A program made the translations under genes and the position numbers. A stretch of DNA of 4,480 nucleotides, from the IMG/VR virus record IMGVR_UViG_2713896791_000006; one strand, 5' to 3'. Below are positions 896 to 4,480 of the stretch, one piece after another (the first letter of the stretch is position 1; every line of letters starts with the position of its first letter). The DNA is from a virus (Duplodnaviria > Heunggongvirae > Uroviricota > Caudoviricetes). A model generated the notes under the pieces. That model saw nothing but the letters and a program-made list of their open reading frames with translations, made no database searches and had not been told where the DNA came from.

Positions 896-1372
896 TTAAG
901 TTCCTGTCTTGGTGATGTTCTGGCTTTTCCGTTTTGATTCTTGATTTTTCAGATAGTTAGCTACCTTCATTTCCATTGCGGCAATGTAGGCGCGAACGTC
1001 ATGATCAACCCAACTAGGCTCCGTAGCATTTCCAGATAAGATGAAAGCCACAATTGCTCTTTTTTCATCAGAGGCGGCTTGATAAAGGCTGTTTATGTCT
1101 AAAAGTTCACTTTTTGTATCTGAAGTGGATGGGGTTGGTATGGGGTATTCGTTAAGCCCCCAATGCTCTGGACCAACCACATCAGAAAAGAAACGCCATA
1201 GTTCTGGAAGTTTGTCTTTACTTATCGAACCTTTCTTAATCCAGTCATGGATTGATGGTGGTTGGACTTTGAAATGACGTGCGATTTCCGCCTTTGATTT
1301 GACGGCTCCTGATGCAATTTTTTTGTTAATGGCCTGCTCTATCGCTCGGCCTAAGTCTTTACCACTAAGCAT
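896..1372 (-). CDS. racR: CI-like helix-turn-helix repressor of a Rac-type prophage (RacR-like, 158 aa)
   Basis: 158-aa ORF with an N-terminal HTH-like segment (KSKAEIARHFKVQPPSIHDWIKKG). ATG at 1372-1370 with AGGAG (RC of 1384-1388) upstream; stop TAA at 898-896. Divergent from a Cro-like gene and followed by ydaT/ydaU/ydaV-like genes, matching the Rac prophage gene order as I recall it; the 158-aa length matches RacR. Confidence 0.8.
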   Translation of the reverse strand: MLSGKDLGRAIEQAINKKIASGAVKSKAEIARHFKVQPPSIHDWIKKGSISKDKLPELWRFFSDVVGPEHWGLNEYPIPTPSTSDTKSELLDINSLYQAASDEKRAIVAFILSGNATEPSWVDHDVRAYIAAMEMKVANYLKNQESKRKSQNITKTGT

Positions 1373-1401: not shown

Positions 1402-1467
1402 TAGGCAATCCCTACTCTCGATGTATTAGGCATAGCCTATTGACAATTTCATTAGGCTAAGCCTAAT
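1402..1467. promoter_or_regulatory. Three operator-like palindromes in the racR-ydaS divergent region (OR analogue)
   Basis: Site 1 TAGGC-AAT-CCCTA at 1402-1414 (one mismatch). Site 2 TAGGC-ATA-GCCTA at 1427-1439 (perfect). Site 3 ATTAGGCT-A-AGCCTAAT at 1451-1467 (perfect 17-bp palindrome). Centres at 1408, 1433 and 1459, i.e. 25-26 bp apart. Sites 2 and 3 flank or overlap the rightward promoter. Confidence 0.5.
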
Positions 1468-1469
1468 AT
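1440..1469 (+). promoter_or_regulatory. Rightward sigma70-type promoter (PR analogue) for the ydaS operon
   Basis: -35 TTGACA at 1440-1445, 18-nt spacer, -10 TAATAT at 1464-1469. GGAG at 1484-1487 then ATG at 1497. Confidence 0.5.
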
Positions 1470-1496: not shown

Positions 1497-1820
1497 ATGA
1501 AAAAAGATAACTATTCATTCAAACGAGCTTGTGCTGTTGTCGGTGGGCAATCAGCAATGGCTAGGCTTTTAGGTGTATCTCCTCCAAGCGTAAATCAATG
1601 GATCAAAGGTGTACGTCAGTTACCTGCTGAGAGATGTCCTGCGATTGAACGAGCAACAAAAGGTGGTGTTCTGTGTGAAGAACTTCGTCCTGATGTTGAT
1701 TGGACATACTTACGACGCTCGTCATGTTATTCGCAGAATATGTCGATGAAGCAACCAAATGACGAAAACGATCATACCCGAAGCATCAAGAGGCAAATGA
1801 TTCATGAAAATCAAACATGA
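1497..1820 (+). CDS. ydaS: Cro-like HTH protein (YdaS-like)
   Basis: ATG at 1497 (MKKDNYSF...) with GGAG 9 nt upstream. HTH-like segment QSAMARLLGVSPPSVNQWIKG. The ORF-track start at 1476 is a GTG extension lying inside the predicted promoter/leader, so I prefer 1497. Position is divergent from the repressor gene. Confidence 0.75.
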   Translation: MKKDNYSFKRACAVVGGQSAMARLLGVSPPSVNQWIKGVRQLPAERCPAIERATKGGVLCEELRPDVDWTYLRRSSCYSQNMSMKQPNDENDHTRSIKRQMIHENQT

Positions 1821-2229
1821 GCACATCCGCATGGCGATGAATGCCTGGGCATACCCTGATGGTGAGAAAGTTCCTGCAGCTGAAATAGCCCGGACTTATT
1901 TCGAACTGGGGATGACGTTCCCTGAACTGTACGACGACAGCCATCCGGAAGCCCTGGCCCGTAATACCCAGAAAATTTTCCGTTGGCTGGATAAAGACAC
2001 CCCTGATGCTGTTGAAAAAATGCAGGCTCTGTTACCGGCGATCGAAAAGGCGATGCCGCCTTTGCTGGTGGCCCGTATGCGCAGCCACAGTTCTGAATAT
2101 TACCGTGAGATCGTCGAACGGAGGGATCGGCTGGTGAAGGATGTCGATGATTTTGTTGCGTCAGCGGTTGTTTTGTATGACCAGATGAATCGCGGCGGCC
2201 CGGCAGGGAATGCTGTGGTGATGCACTAA
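1804..2229 (+). CDS. ydaT: YdaT-like protein (140 aa; reported CII-like / toxic when derepressed)
   Basis: ATG at 1804 with AAGAGG (1788-1793) upstream. Overlaps the 3' end of ydaS by 17 nt in a different frame. Length and position match YdaT in the Rac gene order. Confidence 0.75.
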   Translation: MKIKHEHIRMAMNAWAYPDGEKVPAAEIARTYFELGMTFPELYDDSHPEALARNTQKIFRWLDKDTPDAVEKMQALLPAIEKAMPPLLVARMRSHSSEYYREIVERRDRLVKDVDDFVASAVVLYDQMNRGGPAGNAVVMH

Positions 2230-2251
2230 AAGCACGGTGTTCGGGGGTTTT

Positions 2252-3214
2252 ATGAGCAGCAAGCTTCATGGTCTTGTCTGGGAAGGGTGCGCCTTCACCG
2301 GCATGATCTTATCCAGGGTGGCGGTTATGGCCCGTCTTGCAGACTACAGCAATGACGAGGGCGTGTCATGGCCTGCCATTGAAACTATCCGGCGTCAGAT
2401 CGGTGCAAGAAGTGAATCCACAGTGAAATCGGCTATTGCAGAACTGGCGAAAGAGGGCTGGCTGACGAAGGAAGAGCGTAAGGTCGGTGGGCGTAATGTA
2501 AGCAATATCTATCGGCTTAATGTGGAAAAACTCGAAGCAGCTGCGGCGGCGGCGCGTGAGTCATATAAACCGAAAAGAAAAATTAGCCCGGCAAAAAATG
2601 ACCCGTTAACAGTTGACCCGTCAAATATTGACCCCTCAACGGTTGACCCGTCAAATTTTGATGGATCAACTGTTGATAAAAAACTGCCGATTAGGGGGGC
2701 GATGATTGACCCCGATCCGTCAGTATTAAAACCTGATCCGTCAGATAAAAGATCTTCTTGTCCGGACGCTTCGCAACCGGACCCGCAGACGGCTGAACAG
2801 GATTTTTTAACCCGACACCCTGACGCGGTTGTGTTCAGTGCGAAAAAACGCCAGTGGGGAAGTCAGGAAGATTTGGTGTGCGCACAGTGGATCTGGGGAC
2901 GAATCGTGAGTCTTTACGAGCAGGCGGCCAGCGATGATGGCGAGATCACTAGACCGAAAGAACCCAACTGGACAGCATGGGCCAATGACGTTCGCACAAT
3001 GCGGATGCTGGATGGCAGAACTCACAGACAAATTTGTGAAATGTTTGGGCGTCTCCAGCGGGATTCGTTCTGGGTAAAAAACATCATGAGTCCGGCAAAA
3101 CTCCGGGAAAAATGGGATGAACTGGTTATCCGCCTGGGGCGTTCGCCTGCGCAGCGTTGCGTGAATCACATTTCTGAACCGGACACTGAAATACCGCCGG
3201 GATTCAGGGGGTGA
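2252..3214 (+). CDS. ydaU: Replication initiator-like protein (YdaU-like): N-terminal winged-HTH, pentapeptide-repeat linker, DnaT-like C-terminal tail
   Basis: ATG at 2252 preceded by GGGGG (2243-2247); the track start at 2237 is GTG. N-terminal segment RLADYSNDEGVSWPAIETIRRQIGARSESTVKSAIAELAKEGWL resembles a winged-helix DNA-binding domain. The C-terminus ...VNHISEPDTEIPPGFRG closely resembles the C-terminus of E. coli DnaT as I recall it (...VNTVSEPDSQIPPGFRG). Sits immediately upstream of the DnaC-like gene. Confidence 0.8.
   Translation: MSSKLHGLVWEGCAFTGMILSRVAVMARLADYSNDEGVSWPAIETIRRQIGARSESTVKSAIAELAKEGWLTKEERKVGGRNVSNIYRLNVEKLEAAAAAARESYKPKRKISPAKNDPLTVDPSNIDPSTVDPSNFDGSTVDKKLPIRGAMIDPDPSVLKPDPSDKRSSCPDASQPDPQTAEQDFLTRHPDAVVFSAKKRQWGSQEDLVCAQWIWGRIVSLYEQAASDDGEITRPKEPNWTAWANDVRTMRMLDGRTHRQICEMFGRLQRDSFWVKNIMSPAKLREKWDELVIRLGRSPAQRCVNHISEPDTEIPPGFRG
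2598..2687. repeat. Tandem 15-bp iteron-like repeats (core TTGAC-CC-GTCAA) inside ydaU
   Basis: Units at 2598, 2613, 2628, 2643, 2658 and 2673: atgacccgttaacag, ttgacccgtcaaata, ttgacccctcaacgg, ttgacccgtcaaatt, ttgatggatcaactg, ttgataaaaaactgc. Each good unit has the inverted arms TTGAC/GTCAA. They encode pentapeptide repeats VDPSN/IDPST. Confidence 0.55.
2706..2754. repeat. Second repeat pair (GATCCGTCAG followed by A/T-rich tract) with clustered GATC sites
   Basis: GATCCGTCAG at 2714-2723 and 2736-2745, each followed by tattaaaa / ataaaag. GATC at 2664, 2714, 2736 and 2751, i.e. four sites in about 90 bp. Confidence 0.4.
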
Positions 3215-3220
3215 CGTGTC

Positions 3221-3961
3221 ATGAAAAACATTGCGGCAGTTGGGGTTCTTGAACGTATTCGCAGACTTGCACCACAGGGGGCGGTTCCACCGTACCGGAC
3301 GGTGGAGGAGTGGCGGGAATGGCAACTTGCTGAAGGACGAAAACGCAGCGAGGAGATTAACCGCCTGAATCATCAGGTGCGGGTTGAAAAAATCCTGAAC
3401 CGTGCGGGCATCCAGCCGCTTCACAGGAAGTGCTCATTCGGGAACTACCGGGTGCAGAACGACGGTCAGCGCCATGCTCTGAGCCAGGCGAAATCCATTG
3501 CCGATGAATTGATGACCGGATGTACAAACTTCGTGTTCAGCGGTAAACCTGGTACCGGTAAAAATCACCTGGCAGCAGCGATTGGCAATCGGCTGATGGC
3601 GAAGGGGAGAAGCGTGATTATCGTCACCGTGTCCGATGTCATGAGCGTGTTGCATGACGGCTACGACAACGGCCAGTCCGGGGAAAAATTTTTACAGGAG
3701 CTTTGTGGAGTTGACCTTCTGGTCCTTGATGAAATTGGCATGCAGCGGGATACGCGCAACGAGCAGGTCACGCTGAACCAGATAGTCGACCGCAGAACGG
3801 CTTCGATGCGTAGTGTCGGAATGCTGACGAACCTGAATCACGCAGCGATGAGCACACTCCTCGGAGATCGGGTGATGGACCGTATGACCATGAATGGTGG
3901 TCGTTGGGTGAATTTTAACTGGGAGAGCTGGCGGTCAAACGTTGGACGTCAGGGTATGTGA
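3221..3961 (+). CDS. ydaV: DnaC-like AAA+ helicase loader (YdaV-like, 246 aa)
   Basis: ATG at 3221 with AGGGGG (3206-3211) upstream. DnaC-type Walker A FSGKPGTGKNHLAAAIG (DNA 3542-3565 covers GKPGTGKN) and Walker B DLLVLDEIG. Similar along its whole length to E. coli DnaC as I recall it (e.g. CSFxNYRV, MLTNxN, VMDRM, NW[ED]S[WY]RS). Confidence 0.85.
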   Translation: MKNIAAVGVLERIRRLAPQGAVPPYRTVEEWREWQLAEGRKRSEEINRLNHQVRVEKILNRAGIQPLHRKCSFGNYRVQNDGQRHALSQAKSIADELMTGCTNFVFSGKPGTGKNHLAAAIGNRLMAKGRSVIIVTVSDVMSVLHDGYDNGQSGEKFLQELCGVDLLVLDEIGMQRDTRNEQVTLNQIVDRRTASMRSVGMLTNLNHAAMSTLLGDRVMDRMTMNGGRWVNFNWESWRSNVGRQGM

Positions 3962-3985: not shown

Positions 3986-4480
3986 GATGGAAACTGTATT
4001 GCATGCACTGAAAGCGATGGGAAAAGCCAATTCTGTTGAACTGGCGGCGCGGCTTGATATCAGCCGTGAAGAAGTTCTTAACGAACTGTGGGAACTCAAA
4101 AAAAATGGCGTTGTTGATAAAACGGGTCACACCTGGTTTCTGGCTGTCGAAGGTGANNNNNNNNNNNNNNNNNNNNNNNNNNNNNNNNNNNNNNNNNNNN
4201 NNNNNNTCAAAAAAAATGGCGTTGTTGATAAAACGGGTCACACCTGGTTTCTGGCTGTCGAAGGTGAAGCCGGGGTAACCGAAGGGCAGGCACTACAACC
4301 TGAAGCGCCGGATGTGGTAACCGAAGAGGTCGCTCCAAAAGTTACCGCAGACATGATGGTTGAGTTTATCGGTCAGGATGGTGCTAAAACGTGTGAGGAA
4401 CTGGCGGGTAAGTTCGGCGTCAGTACTCGCAAGGTTGCTTCCACGCTGGCGGTGGTAACCGCAACGGGGCGGCTGGCACG
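3986..4480 (+). CDS. Hypothetical protein with two winged-helix-like segments; partial (runs off the window) and interrupted by an artefactual gap
   Basis: ATG at 3986 with GAGGTAAA (3973-3980) upstream: [57 protein letters not shown]... The frame resumes after the gap at 4209 ([28 protein letters not shown]...[35 protein letters not shown]...) and is open to 4480. Could be a YdaW-like gene, but I cannot confirm this. Confidence 0.5.
4096..4267. repeat. 61-bp exact direct duplication (4096-4156 = 4207-4267) across the N gap; probable mis-joined overlapping contig ends
   Basis: Both copies read tcaaaaaaaatggcgttgttgataaaacgggtcacacctggtttctggctgtcgaaggtga. Removing the gap and one copy restores a continuous in-frame ORF. 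Confidence 0.85.
4157..4206. other. Assembly/scaffold gap (50 N) flanked by duplicated contig ends
   Basis: Run of exactly 50 N; the 61 bp before and after are identical. Confidence 0.95.

Follow-up and report, generated by a model that had tools for sequence, protein, structure and literature searches.

Genes and control sites of the locus

Two overlapping rightward genes, ydaS and ydaT, lie beside the divergent repressor gene racR in the DNA analyzed here, a stretch of 4,480 nucleotides from a virus of the Caudoviricetes (IMG/VR record IMGVR_UViG_2713896791_000006), hereafter the window. The DNA of the window was 100% identical to annotated E. coli chromosomes, for example that of O103:H2 12009. 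The divergent gene bears the name racR in these genomes, and RefSeq lists the same two CDSs with the same 17-nt overlap in the 100% identical chromosome NC_013353.1. In the identical genome the left flank holds integrase, excisionase, exonuclease, and dicB, and the right flank RusA.

The first gene of the rightward operon is ydaS (1497-1820, plus strand; ATG at 1497, stop TGA at 1818-1820), which encodes a Cro-like HTH regulator of 107 aa, is preceded by GGAG at 1485-1488, and shares its operator/promoter region with the divergent repressor gene. Residues 9-71 of the protein matched the Pfam family YdaS_toxin (PF15943; E = 3.8e-30, 103.9 bits, cut-off 30), and the protein also matched P22_Cro (PF14549; E = 1e-8, 35.3 bits against a cut-off of 30.2), the solved Cro protein PDB 3BD1 (E = 2.8e-10), and the transcriptional repressors of PHROG 35 (E = 6.1e-34). 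Its identity to YdaS of E. coli K-12 was 85%. ydaT (1804-2229, plus strand; ATG at 1804, stop at 2227-2229) encodes a CII-like transcriptional activator of 141 aa. This protein matched Pfam YdaT_toxin (PF06254; E = 2.8e-10, 40.9 bits, cut-off 21), the CII-like activators of PHROG 163 (E = 2e-47), and the structure of CP-933P YdaT, PDB 8BT1 (E = 3.3e-89; 134/140 residues, 96% identity). It was only 31% identical to K-12 YdaT and is thus of the CP-933P type. Phage records label its homologues "activator protein cII" and place them between a cro-type gene and gene O. In the recognition helix, the K-12 residues HRW (H56, R57, W58), which are required for DNA binding, align with FRW in the window, so that R60 and W61 are conserved and His is replaced by Phe. 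CP-933P YdaT, which also carries FRW, binds DNA (PMC9986795). The earlier note on this DNA had named the two genes from the letters alone, and the matches to both Pfam families, above cut-off, bear the names out. Its reading of a 17-nt out-of-frame overlap (1804-1820) and of a Shine-Dalgarno-like AAGAGG (1788-1793, plus strand) within the end of ydaS was likewise recovered from the sequence; the motif stands 10 nt before the ydaT ATG and is identical in K-12, where it is intergenic.

racR (896-1372, minus strand) encodes a CI-analogous prophage repressor of 158 aa with 91% identity to K-12 RacR. The protein had no match in Pfam or PHROGs; the NCBIfam RacR equivalog model did match (246.3 bits, cut-off 200). 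Downstream of ydaT and co-directional with it (2252-3961, plus strand) are an O-like replication gene (2252-3214), assigned from Pfam HTH_36 and the genome annotation with DnaD_N below threshold (17.4 bits, cut-off 27), and a DnaC/P-like replication gene (3221-3961), assigned from the Pfam IstB_IS21 / Bac_DnaA ATPase matches and the genome annotation. An iteron-like array (2578-2676) lies within the O-like gene. The stretch 650-2300 yielded no intrinsic terminator, and there is thus no sequence barrier to transcription across ydaS, ydaT, and the replication genes.

Operators of the RacR type were sought over the whole window with the pattern WTAGGC-N3-GCCTAW, allowing at most two mismatches; the consensus was taken from PMC9638921. 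Six matches were obtained against 0.46 expected (none of 200 shuffles gave six), and they cluster at two promoters. The right-hand region (1401-1466) holds three sites, at 1401-1415, 1426-1440, and 1452-1466, and these overlap a consensus rightward promoter, the equivalent of PydaST or PR (1440-1469, plus strand; 10/12 matches in the promoter scan), with -35 TTGACA at 1440-1445, an 18-nt spacer, and -10 TAATAT at 1464-1469. Both hexamers and their spacing are those of the mapped K-12 PydaST (PMC11879457). The left-hand region (759-820) holds sites at 762-776, 787-801, and 806-820 together with a leftward promoter (minus strand; TTGACA at 787-782, TATAGT at 764-759). The 23 nt at 781-803 repeat the right-hand operator and -35 region (1424-1446) perfectly in inverted orientation. 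These two promoters were the only strong sigma-70 matches in 650-2300. A further inverted repeat, CTAAGC-ATT-GCTTAA (1365-1379), was read over the racR start codon and is the counterpart of K-12 operator 3, ACTAAGCATTGCTTAAT (PMC9638921). The operators (1365-1466) and the rightward promoter all belong to the region shared by the divergent, adjacent racR and ydaS genes. That the pair is controlled by the adjacent repressor, as the earlier note proposed, is supported by this overlap of RacR-type operators with the promoter.

At the ydaS/ydaT junction we read a second kind of control site, the YdaT-box (1797-1814; ATGATTCATGAAAATCAA), an inverted repeat ATGATT-N6-AATCAA whose spacer includes the ydaT start codon. 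It is letter for letter the DNaseI-footprinted YdaT-box of K-12 (PMC11879457) and differs by one mismatch from TTGATT-N6-AATCAA, the OM site of CP-933P (PMC9986795); the cognate repeat at the cro-type/ydaT junction can thus be written (T/A)TGATT-N6-AATCAA. The 17-nt overlap coincides with this YdaT operator. The box was absent from the earlier note's account of the overlap.

In K-12, binding of YdaT to the box increases the activity of a reverse promoter by as much as 29-fold and also increases racR expression (PMC11879457). A putative counterpart of that promoter, PracR4, was read on the minus strand inside ydaS (1587-1619; CTGACG at 1619-1614, TACGCT at 1592-1587) from the hexamers named in PMC11879457. 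The -35 hexamer is TTGACG in K-12 and CTGACG in the window. The hexamers stand 21 nt apart in both, a non-canonical spacing, for which reason a search for a reverse promoter with the canonical 17-nt spacer found nothing. Because of the altered -35 and this spacing it is uncertain which leftward promoter YdaT would activate here, the PracR4 counterpart or another near the box. In CP-933P the YdaT-dependent promoter PRE933P has been placed near the box itself (PMC9986795, PMC8630535). An alternative -10 candidate, TATGAT (1776-1771, minus strand), adjoins the YdaT-box and was seen by eye only.

Origin and frequency of the 17-nt overlap

The two genes overlap in different frames (1497 mod 3 = 0, 1804 mod 3 = 1). 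The overlap results from a sense codon, CGA at 1779-1781, in the place of the stop TGA with which it aligns in K-12 ydaS, so that translation continues to the next in-frame stop; the final 13 codons of ydaS (1779-1817) are thus a read-through extension relative to K-12. The conserved joint formed by the YdaT-box and the 5' end of ydaT contains three TGA stops, one per frame, at 1798, 1805, and 1818. RNA structure at the junction (1760-1850) was considered as a basis for coupling and rejected, the fold being no better than that of shuffled sequence (z = 0.14).

We then surveyed gene pairs sharing the joint. A scan of DNA for the joint pattern was chosen for the sake of diversity, since a search with YdaS gave four loci, all of K-12 type, from genome contigs and mostly identical copies from viral contigs. 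Among 107 distinct gene pairs the overlap was 17 nt in 52 and 4 nt in 44, and 11 had a gap, raw counts that are biased towards the 17-nt class because an exact 22-nt joint pattern was required and 80 loci were included by way of the window's own YdaS. The stop in the third frame, which would leave a 3-nt gap, was used by a single pair. The cro-type genes fell into 16 groups at 70% identity and are paired with two YdaT types. Three of these groups (five at 90% identity) contained both 17-nt and 4-nt members, four others at 70% identity mixed overlap with gap, and in one group the overlap state is switched by a one-base change in a G run. The YdaT-box is conserved across diverse phages with unrelated DNA upstream, and upstream homology stops at the left half-site of the box; a G-rich Shine-Dalgarno-like motif precedes the box in all variants.

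The overlap is therefore neither unusual nor specific to ydaS: a conserved junction commonly takes two states, and 17 nt is one of them. The joint marks the left edge of a ydaT module that can be exchanged; in the window, ydaT is of the CP-933P type and stands behind a racR-ydaS of the Rac type. This hybrid was present in about 10% of complete E. coli genomes (529/5426, at coverage of at least 80%).

The earlier note had taken the overlap and the embedded ribosome-binding site to imply coupled expression from the rightward promoter. Co-expression from that promoter stands, since K-12 produces a bicistronic ydaS-ydaT transcript and ydaT has no promoter of its own there (PMC11879457), but the overlap as the device of coupling does not: its position is that of the YdaT operator and of a mosaic joint common to many cro-type genes, and K-12, in which the phenotype was defined, lacks the overlap. 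A stronger form of the idea holds that the overlap was selected because it enforces translational coupling and keeps YdaT proportional to YdaS, the extended YdaS tail RSIKRQMIHENQT being functional. It can point to the 96 of 107 distinct pairs that overlap by 17 or 4 nt, to the use of the third-frame stop by one pair only, and to the constant G-rich motif before the box. We nevertheless consider such selection quite improbable. K-12 has the same Shine-Dalgarno motif, box, and ATG behind a 22-nt gap and still makes YdaT from its bicistronic mRNA; overlap states are mixed within cro-type groups, three holding 17 and 4 nt and four holding overlap and gap; and few independent lineages underlie the counts. 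The shared tail, ...IHENQ[A/T], is simply what the box and the first ydaT codons encode when read out of frame, and it lies beyond the Pfam YdaS domain, and the ydaT start is not occluded by RNA structure. The length of the overlap at this junction should accordingly not be taken as regulatory design.

A broader suggestion concerns the conserved joint of about 30 nt as a whole, with its G-rich Shine-Dalgarno motif, its YdaT-box carrying the ATG in the spacer, and its TGA in all frames. This joint may be a selected "universal adaptor" of lambdoid phages rather than a mere by-product: any cro-type gene brought in by recombination at the box would terminate within 23 nt, ribosomes would pass on to ydaT, and the box would supply the homology for exchange. 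We offer this as a tentative and rather doubtful idea. If true, it would explain how at least 16 cro-type groups and two YdaT types occur in nearly free combination. Apart from this, the survey illustrates clearly how lambdoid phages exchange modules at a regulatory site, a principle that is already known.

Regulatory and toxic readings of the module

The layout found here is that of a lambdoid immunity and early-right region, with repressor, cro-type gene, cII-type gene, initiator, and helicase-loader in order and operator sets at the rightward and leftward promoters. We conclude that the window very probably contains the immunity and early-right region of an E. coli lambdoid prophage of the Rac type, with racR as the analogue of CI, ydaS of Cro, and ydaT of CII, and that the pair very probably works as a switch and not as a toxin cassette. 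The ydaS-ydaT pair is an already described regulatory gene pair, and the earlier note was right that the module is not new, racR-ydaS-ydaT having been published. In that literature YdaS and YdaT are Cro and CII analogues of an immunity switch that are toxic only if mis-expressed (PMC5917428, PMC8630535, PMC9986795, PMC11879457).

In a lysogen, RacR bound to the WTAGGC-N3-GCCTAW operators would silence the near-consensus rightward promoter (1440-1469) and probably also the leftward promoter (787-759); this shut-off is deduced from the sequence and from K-12 experiments. Upon infection or derepression, a single transcript would carry ydaS, ydaT, and probably the replication genes. YdaS would then repress the rightward promoter. 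K-12 YdaS represses its rightward promoter with a 16-fold effect (PMC11879457), and operator binding and promoter repression are known for CP-933P YdaS; by homology, the YdaS of the window is predicted to bind the operators and to repress the rightward (and leftward) promoters. A YdaT tetramer would bind the inverted repeat 1797-1814 across its own start codon and turn on a leftward promoter reading back through ydaS into racR. K-12 YdaT is reported to activate a leftward promoter towards the repressor gene, as is CP-933P YdaT when it acts on the Rac box (PMC11879457). The resulting racR transcription would re-establish repression, as lambda CII does at PRE. The CP-933P locus is bistable, and its YdaS and YdaT play the parts of Cro and CII (PMC8630535 among others). 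Gene identities, operators, promoter hexamers, box, mosaic structure, and the frequency of overlap states were established in our analysis; for DNA binding, activation, and toxicity we rely on published work on close homologues, and these properties presumably apply to the present hybrid. The mechanism is thus modelled on homologues, the exact combination of Rac-type RacR/YdaS and CP-933P-type YdaT being known here from its sequence.

According to the earlier note, the module is a growth-inhibitory cassette held silent by its repressor. Repressor control stood, as described above, but the growth-inhibitory role is contested: the literature favours Cro/CII roles, and the YdaT of the window is of the CP-933P type, which reportedly is not toxic. 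The fullest form of the proposal is that killing or arresting the host on loss of RacR is the selected role of the pair, stabilizing the prophage in an addiction-like manner. The literature account behind it proved accurate, as racR is essential in K-12 unless ydaS-ydaT is deleted, through derepression of these genes, and cells die when ydaS or ydaS-T is induced (PMC5700373). Cells producing K-12 YdaT, which is lethal even without Rac, become filamentous, and their colony-forming units fall 10^4-fold; racR silencing is reported to cause membrane stress and filaments. K-12 YdaS, to which the YdaS of the window is so similar, is lethal even in a strain lacking Rac (PMC5700373). The lethality of both K-12 proteins without Rac means that the view of them as regulators only leaves room for a selected host-directed effect. 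We still judge a selected killing role unlikely. CP-933P YdaT showed no toxicity (PMC8630535). Nor is the host rcsA promoter activated by it; rcsA is activated by K-12 YdaT, and the authors associate it with the host effects of that protein. K-12 YdaT toxicity is therefore not simply transferable to the window, and the toxic part of the argument would carry over at best to YdaS, given its similarity to the K-12 protein. Overexpression of lambda CII and of PaaR2 is also detrimental, yet both are regulators (PMC5917428, PMC8630535). Gene order, operators, and box agree with a switch, as does the naming of homologues as cII in phage records. In the identical genome, the same repressor probably controls the leftward operon reaching dicB, so that lethality upon derepression need not stem from ydaS-ydaT. 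In the switch reading, growth inhibition on RacR loss would be a side effect of uncontrolled regulators and other early genes, not a designed toxin output.

A type II toxin-antitoxin pair, in which one protein neutralizes the other by direct binding, is suggested only by the Pfam names "YdaS_toxin" and "YdaT_toxin" and by the RefSeq product "toxin YdaT family protein", and these names derive from computational prediction (PMC5917428, PMC9986795). It is exceedingly improbable. Co-expression of K-12 ydaS-T was as lethal as ydaS alone (PMC5700373), experiments found no such behaviour (see also Jobling's letter and its citations, PMC5917428), and each of the two proteins binds DNA through an HTH and has defined operators. 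A YdaT identical to that of CP-933P was found behind at least four different cro-type genes, which is unexpected for a co-evolving pair, and the 16 cro-type groups are combined with two YdaT types.

The result matters mainly as a correction of annotation and inference. The "toxin" labels of Pfam and RefSeq and the phenotype in K-12 make it tempting to see a toxic cassette here, but the evidence favours the Cro/CII arm of a prophage switch. The effects on the host that depend on YdaT in K-12 may have been lost in the hybrid, and racR essentiality may therefore differ between strains. For strains carrying the hybrid, neither racR essentiality nor "toxin" content should be predicted from K-12.

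Relation to Rac, CP-933P, and lambda

Among the closest known systems is racR-ydaS-ydaT of the cryptic K-12 prophage Rac. It shares with the window the gene order and orientation, the PydaST hexamers and spacing, the Shine-Dalgarno motif, the YdaT-box, and the type of RacR operator; RacR, YdaS, and the DnaC-like gene are 91%, 85%, and 79% identical. The two loci differ in YdaT (31% identity), in the O-like gene, which is unrelated save for the last ~19 residues, and at the junction, where K-12 has a ydaS of 98 aa followed by a 22-nt gap and the window a ydaS of 107 aa with the 17-nt overlap.

The ydaS-ydaT locus of the cryptic prophage CP-933P (Sp12, E. coli O157:H7) resembles the window in the other half of the module. 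Its YdaT, for which a CII-like role has been demonstrated (PMC9986795, PMC8630535), is identical at 134/140 residues, an O-type replication gene follows downstream, and the inverted repeat at the ydaS/ydaT junction has the same right half-site, with TTGATT in place of ATGATT on the left. The repressor in CP-933P is PaaR2, with the paaA2-parE2 toxin-antitoxin pair, and not RacR; the operators differ, and YdaS is of a different Cro type, reported to be 26% identical to K-12 YdaS. In a CP-933P-like locus (with PaaR2, PaaA2, and ParE2-like ORFs) the overlap was 4 nt (ATGA) against 17 nt in the window.

The same logic governs cI-cro-cII of lambda, with a divergent repressor/cro pair, several operators across the promoters, another operator set at the leftward promoter, and a cII-type activator followed by the replication genes O and P. 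As proposed for the YdaT site, an activator site at the cro/cII junction of lambda drives a leftward promoter towards the repressor gene. Lambda CI and CII have no detectable sequence similarity to RacR and YdaT. The lambda CII site is a TTGC-N6-TTGC direct repeat, whereas YdaT binds an inverted repeat as a POU-like tetramer, and lambda Cro acts on cI, whereas K-12 YdaS is reported not to repress racR (PMC9638921).

Immunity and early-right region

The divergent gene racR (896-1372, minus strand, 158 aa) scored 246 bits with the NCBIfam RacR equivalog (cut-off 200). On the plus strand, a ydaS-like reading frame runs from ATG 1497 to TGA 1818-1820 (107 aa) with GGAG upstream at 1485-1488. Its product matched Pfam YdaS_toxin (3.8e-30) and P22_Cro (1e-8) as well as PHROG 35 ('transcriptional repressor'), and resembled solved Cro proteins (3BD1, 2.8e-10). 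The ydaT-like frame (plus strand, ATG 1804 to a stop at 2227-2229, 141 aa) matched Pfam YdaT_toxin (2.8e-10) and PHROG 163 ('CII-like transcriptional activator', 2e-47). The family names given in the earlier note were thus borne out by homology. The out-of-frame overlap that it described, 17 nt at 1804-1820 shared by the two frames, was read directly from the sequence, together with the AAGAGG Shine-Dalgarno sequence of ydaT (1788-1793, plus strand; the ATG follows 10 nt further on). RefSeq has the same overlap on an identical chromosome, annotated there as racR, a helix-turn-helix protein and a 'toxin YdaT family protein'.

Downstream of ydaT lie an O-like initiator gene (2252-3214) and, by Pfam, a DnaC/IstB-like ATPase gene (3221-3961). 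An iteron-like array within the O-like gene (2578-2676; a 15-nt unit repeated about five to six times, with a consensus near CCCGTCAAATATTGA) looks like the iteron origin within gene O of phage lambda. Positions 880-2260 have 100% identical counterparts in many complete E. coli chromosomes, e.g. O103:H2 12009, and query coverage of at least 80% was found in 529 of 5426 complete E. coli genomes. In the identical genome the left flank holds integrase, excisionase, exonuclease and dicB, and the right flank RusA and others. Together these genes identify the locus as a lambdoid prophage's immunity and early-right region. Two runs of N interrupt the window: 578-627 (50 N) stands in for 38 nt of the identical genome, and 4147-4206 (60 N) has one 51-nt stretch present on each side. 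Both are unmerged contig ends, which marks the window as part of a scaffolded draft assembly.

The published RacR operator consensus, (T/A)TAGGC-N3-GCCTA(T/A) (PMC9638921), was searched with up to two mismatches and gave six matches in the window against 0.46 expected; none of 200 shuffles reached six. Three right-hand sites (1401-1466) overlie the rightward promoter (plus strand; perfect -35 TTGACA 1440-1445, -10 TAATAT 1464-1469, 18-nt spacer), and three left-hand sites (762-820) overlie a strong leftward promoter (minus strand; TTGACA 787-782, TATAGT 764-759, 11/12 matches). No other strong sigma-70 match was found in 650-2300. On the right-hand side, a fourth operator site (1365-1379) spans the racR start codon, as in E. 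coli K-12. [quoted passage not shown] The minus-strand stretch 759-820 also repeats, inverted and without a mismatch over 23 nt, the right-hand operator together with its -35 region. Downstream of the leftward promoter, on the same strand, the leftward genes of the identical genome include ydfC and dicB, which encodes a division inhibitor; this offers another route to lethality once RacR is lost.

The YdaT-box and the reverse promoter

Positions 1797-1814, ATGATTCATGAAAATCAA, agree in every letter with the 'YdaT-box' footprinted by YdaT in K-12, an inverted repeat whose spacer ATG is the ydaT start codon (PMC11879457). The homologue from CP-933P, a cryptic prophage of E. coli O157:H7, protects TTGATT-N6-AATCAA in the same place (PMC9986795). 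The overlap region is thus a predicted YdaT operator, a point absent from the earlier note. In K-12, box-bound YdaT boosts a reverse promoter within ydaS up to 29-fold and racR expression rises, an analogue of lambda CII acting at PRE. The published hexamers correspond on the minus strand of the window to CTGACG (1619-1614) and TACGCT (1592-1587); the 21-nt spacer is shared with K-12, and the -35 hexamer differs by one change. The leftward promoter used by the window allele may be this one or another. A second element, TATGAT (1776-1771, minus strand), was seen by eye; it matches the -10 hexamer at five of six positions, sits 20 nt downstream of the YdaT-box on that strand and is kept in K-12. 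If the box covers its -35 position, the arrangement would resemble a CII/PRE-type activator-dependent promoter.

A hybrid locus and the question of toxicity

Identities to K-12 Rac were 91% for RacR, 85% for YdaS and 79% for the DnaC-like protein, but only 31% for YdaT. The window YdaT is instead of the CP-933P type, identical at 134 of 140 residues to the crystallised protein (8BT1), and with its Rac-like neighbours this makes the locus a natural hybrid of two experimentally studied systems. DNA identity to K-12 extends over the Shine-Dalgarno sequence and the box as far as the eighth ydaT codon, beyond which it drops sharply. Relative to the K-12 Rac locus (L002), ydaT and the O-like gene form a replaced cassette (1828-3155) between flanks that are 79-91% identical. 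The O-like protein of K-12 (YdaU) is unrelated to that of the window except for the last ~19 residues, where the match persists; this placement suggests that the right-hand joint coincides with the region of O turned towards its DnaC-like partner. A K-12-type ydaS-ydaT pair was also seen on a 5.2-kb contig (L006, JARKOR010000130.1) assigned by its label to a metagenome-assembled genome of Candidatus Nanosynbacter; it is most likely a piece of E. coli prophage that was binned wrongly.

The earlier note regarded ydaS-ydaT as a growth-inhibitory cassette, given that derepression of the two genes makes racR essential in K-12. This background is correct: induced K-12 YdaS is lethal (PMC5700373), and K-12 YdaT causes filamentation and death. 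The extension to this locus is not supported, as CP-933P YdaT showed no toxicity (PMC8630535) and, unlike K-12 YdaT, fails to activate the host rcsA promoter; both proteins activate the Rac box-dependent promoter equally well. Some growth inhibition by the window YdaS is still plausible because of its 85% identity to K-12 YdaS. The family names might suggest a type II toxin-antitoxin system, but published work contradicts this, and so does the free re-assortment of cro-type genes and ydaT.

Origin of the overlap at a mosaic joint

The K-12 ydaS stop codon, TGA, aligns with CGA at 1779-1781 of the window, so that K-12 YdaS has 98 aa and a 22-nt gap separates the two genes, with Shine-Dalgarno sequence, box and ATG unchanged. 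The window frame passes this CGA and ends at the next in-frame stop. Only three stops, all TGA and one per frame (1798, 1805, 1818), occur within 1780-1830. We surveyed loci with the conserved joint GATTCATGAAAATCARRCATGA, reducing 197 joints to 107 distinct pairs of upstream gene and ydaT, a sample conditioned on the joint pattern and enriched for the window's own YdaS type. A 17-nt overlap was present in 52 pairs and a 4-nt overlap (ATGA) in 44; eight had the 22-nt gap and three another gap. The upstream genes fell into 16 groups at 70% identity (four super-clusters at 35%), taking in YdaS-like, DicC-like and further Cro types. Endings in '...IHENQ(A/T)', which mark the 17-nt state, were present among members of 10 of the 16 groups, and both overlap lengths occurred together in three groups at 70% identity and in five at 90%. 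In the DicC-like group, a single G more or less in a run of G separates the 17-nt from the 4-nt members. DNA homology among the surveyed loci starts precisely at the box's left half-site. At least four different cro-type genes preceded a ydaT that encodes exactly the CP-933P protein, and one CP-933P-like locus, which has PaaR2, PaaA2 and ParE2-like reading frames, showed the 4-nt state. The spread of these states across many cro-type groups argues that the overlap is a generic reading-frame outcome at a mosaic joint and not specific to this pair, and the significance once attached to it falls away.

Coupled expression, which had been read from the overlap, stands in part. Co-transcription of ydaS and ydaT has been shown in K-12; translational coupling is plausible because 96 of the 107 pairs overlap, and it is dispensable in K-12. 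No RNA structure hiding the ydaT start was found (z = 0.14).

This is a module of the RacR-YdaS-YdaT family, the functional equivalent of CI-Cro-CII; as the earlier note recognised, it is not undescribed, and its genetics, biochemistry and structure have been published. The joint with a stop in each of three frames is a small addition inside the known concept of lambdoid mosaicism.
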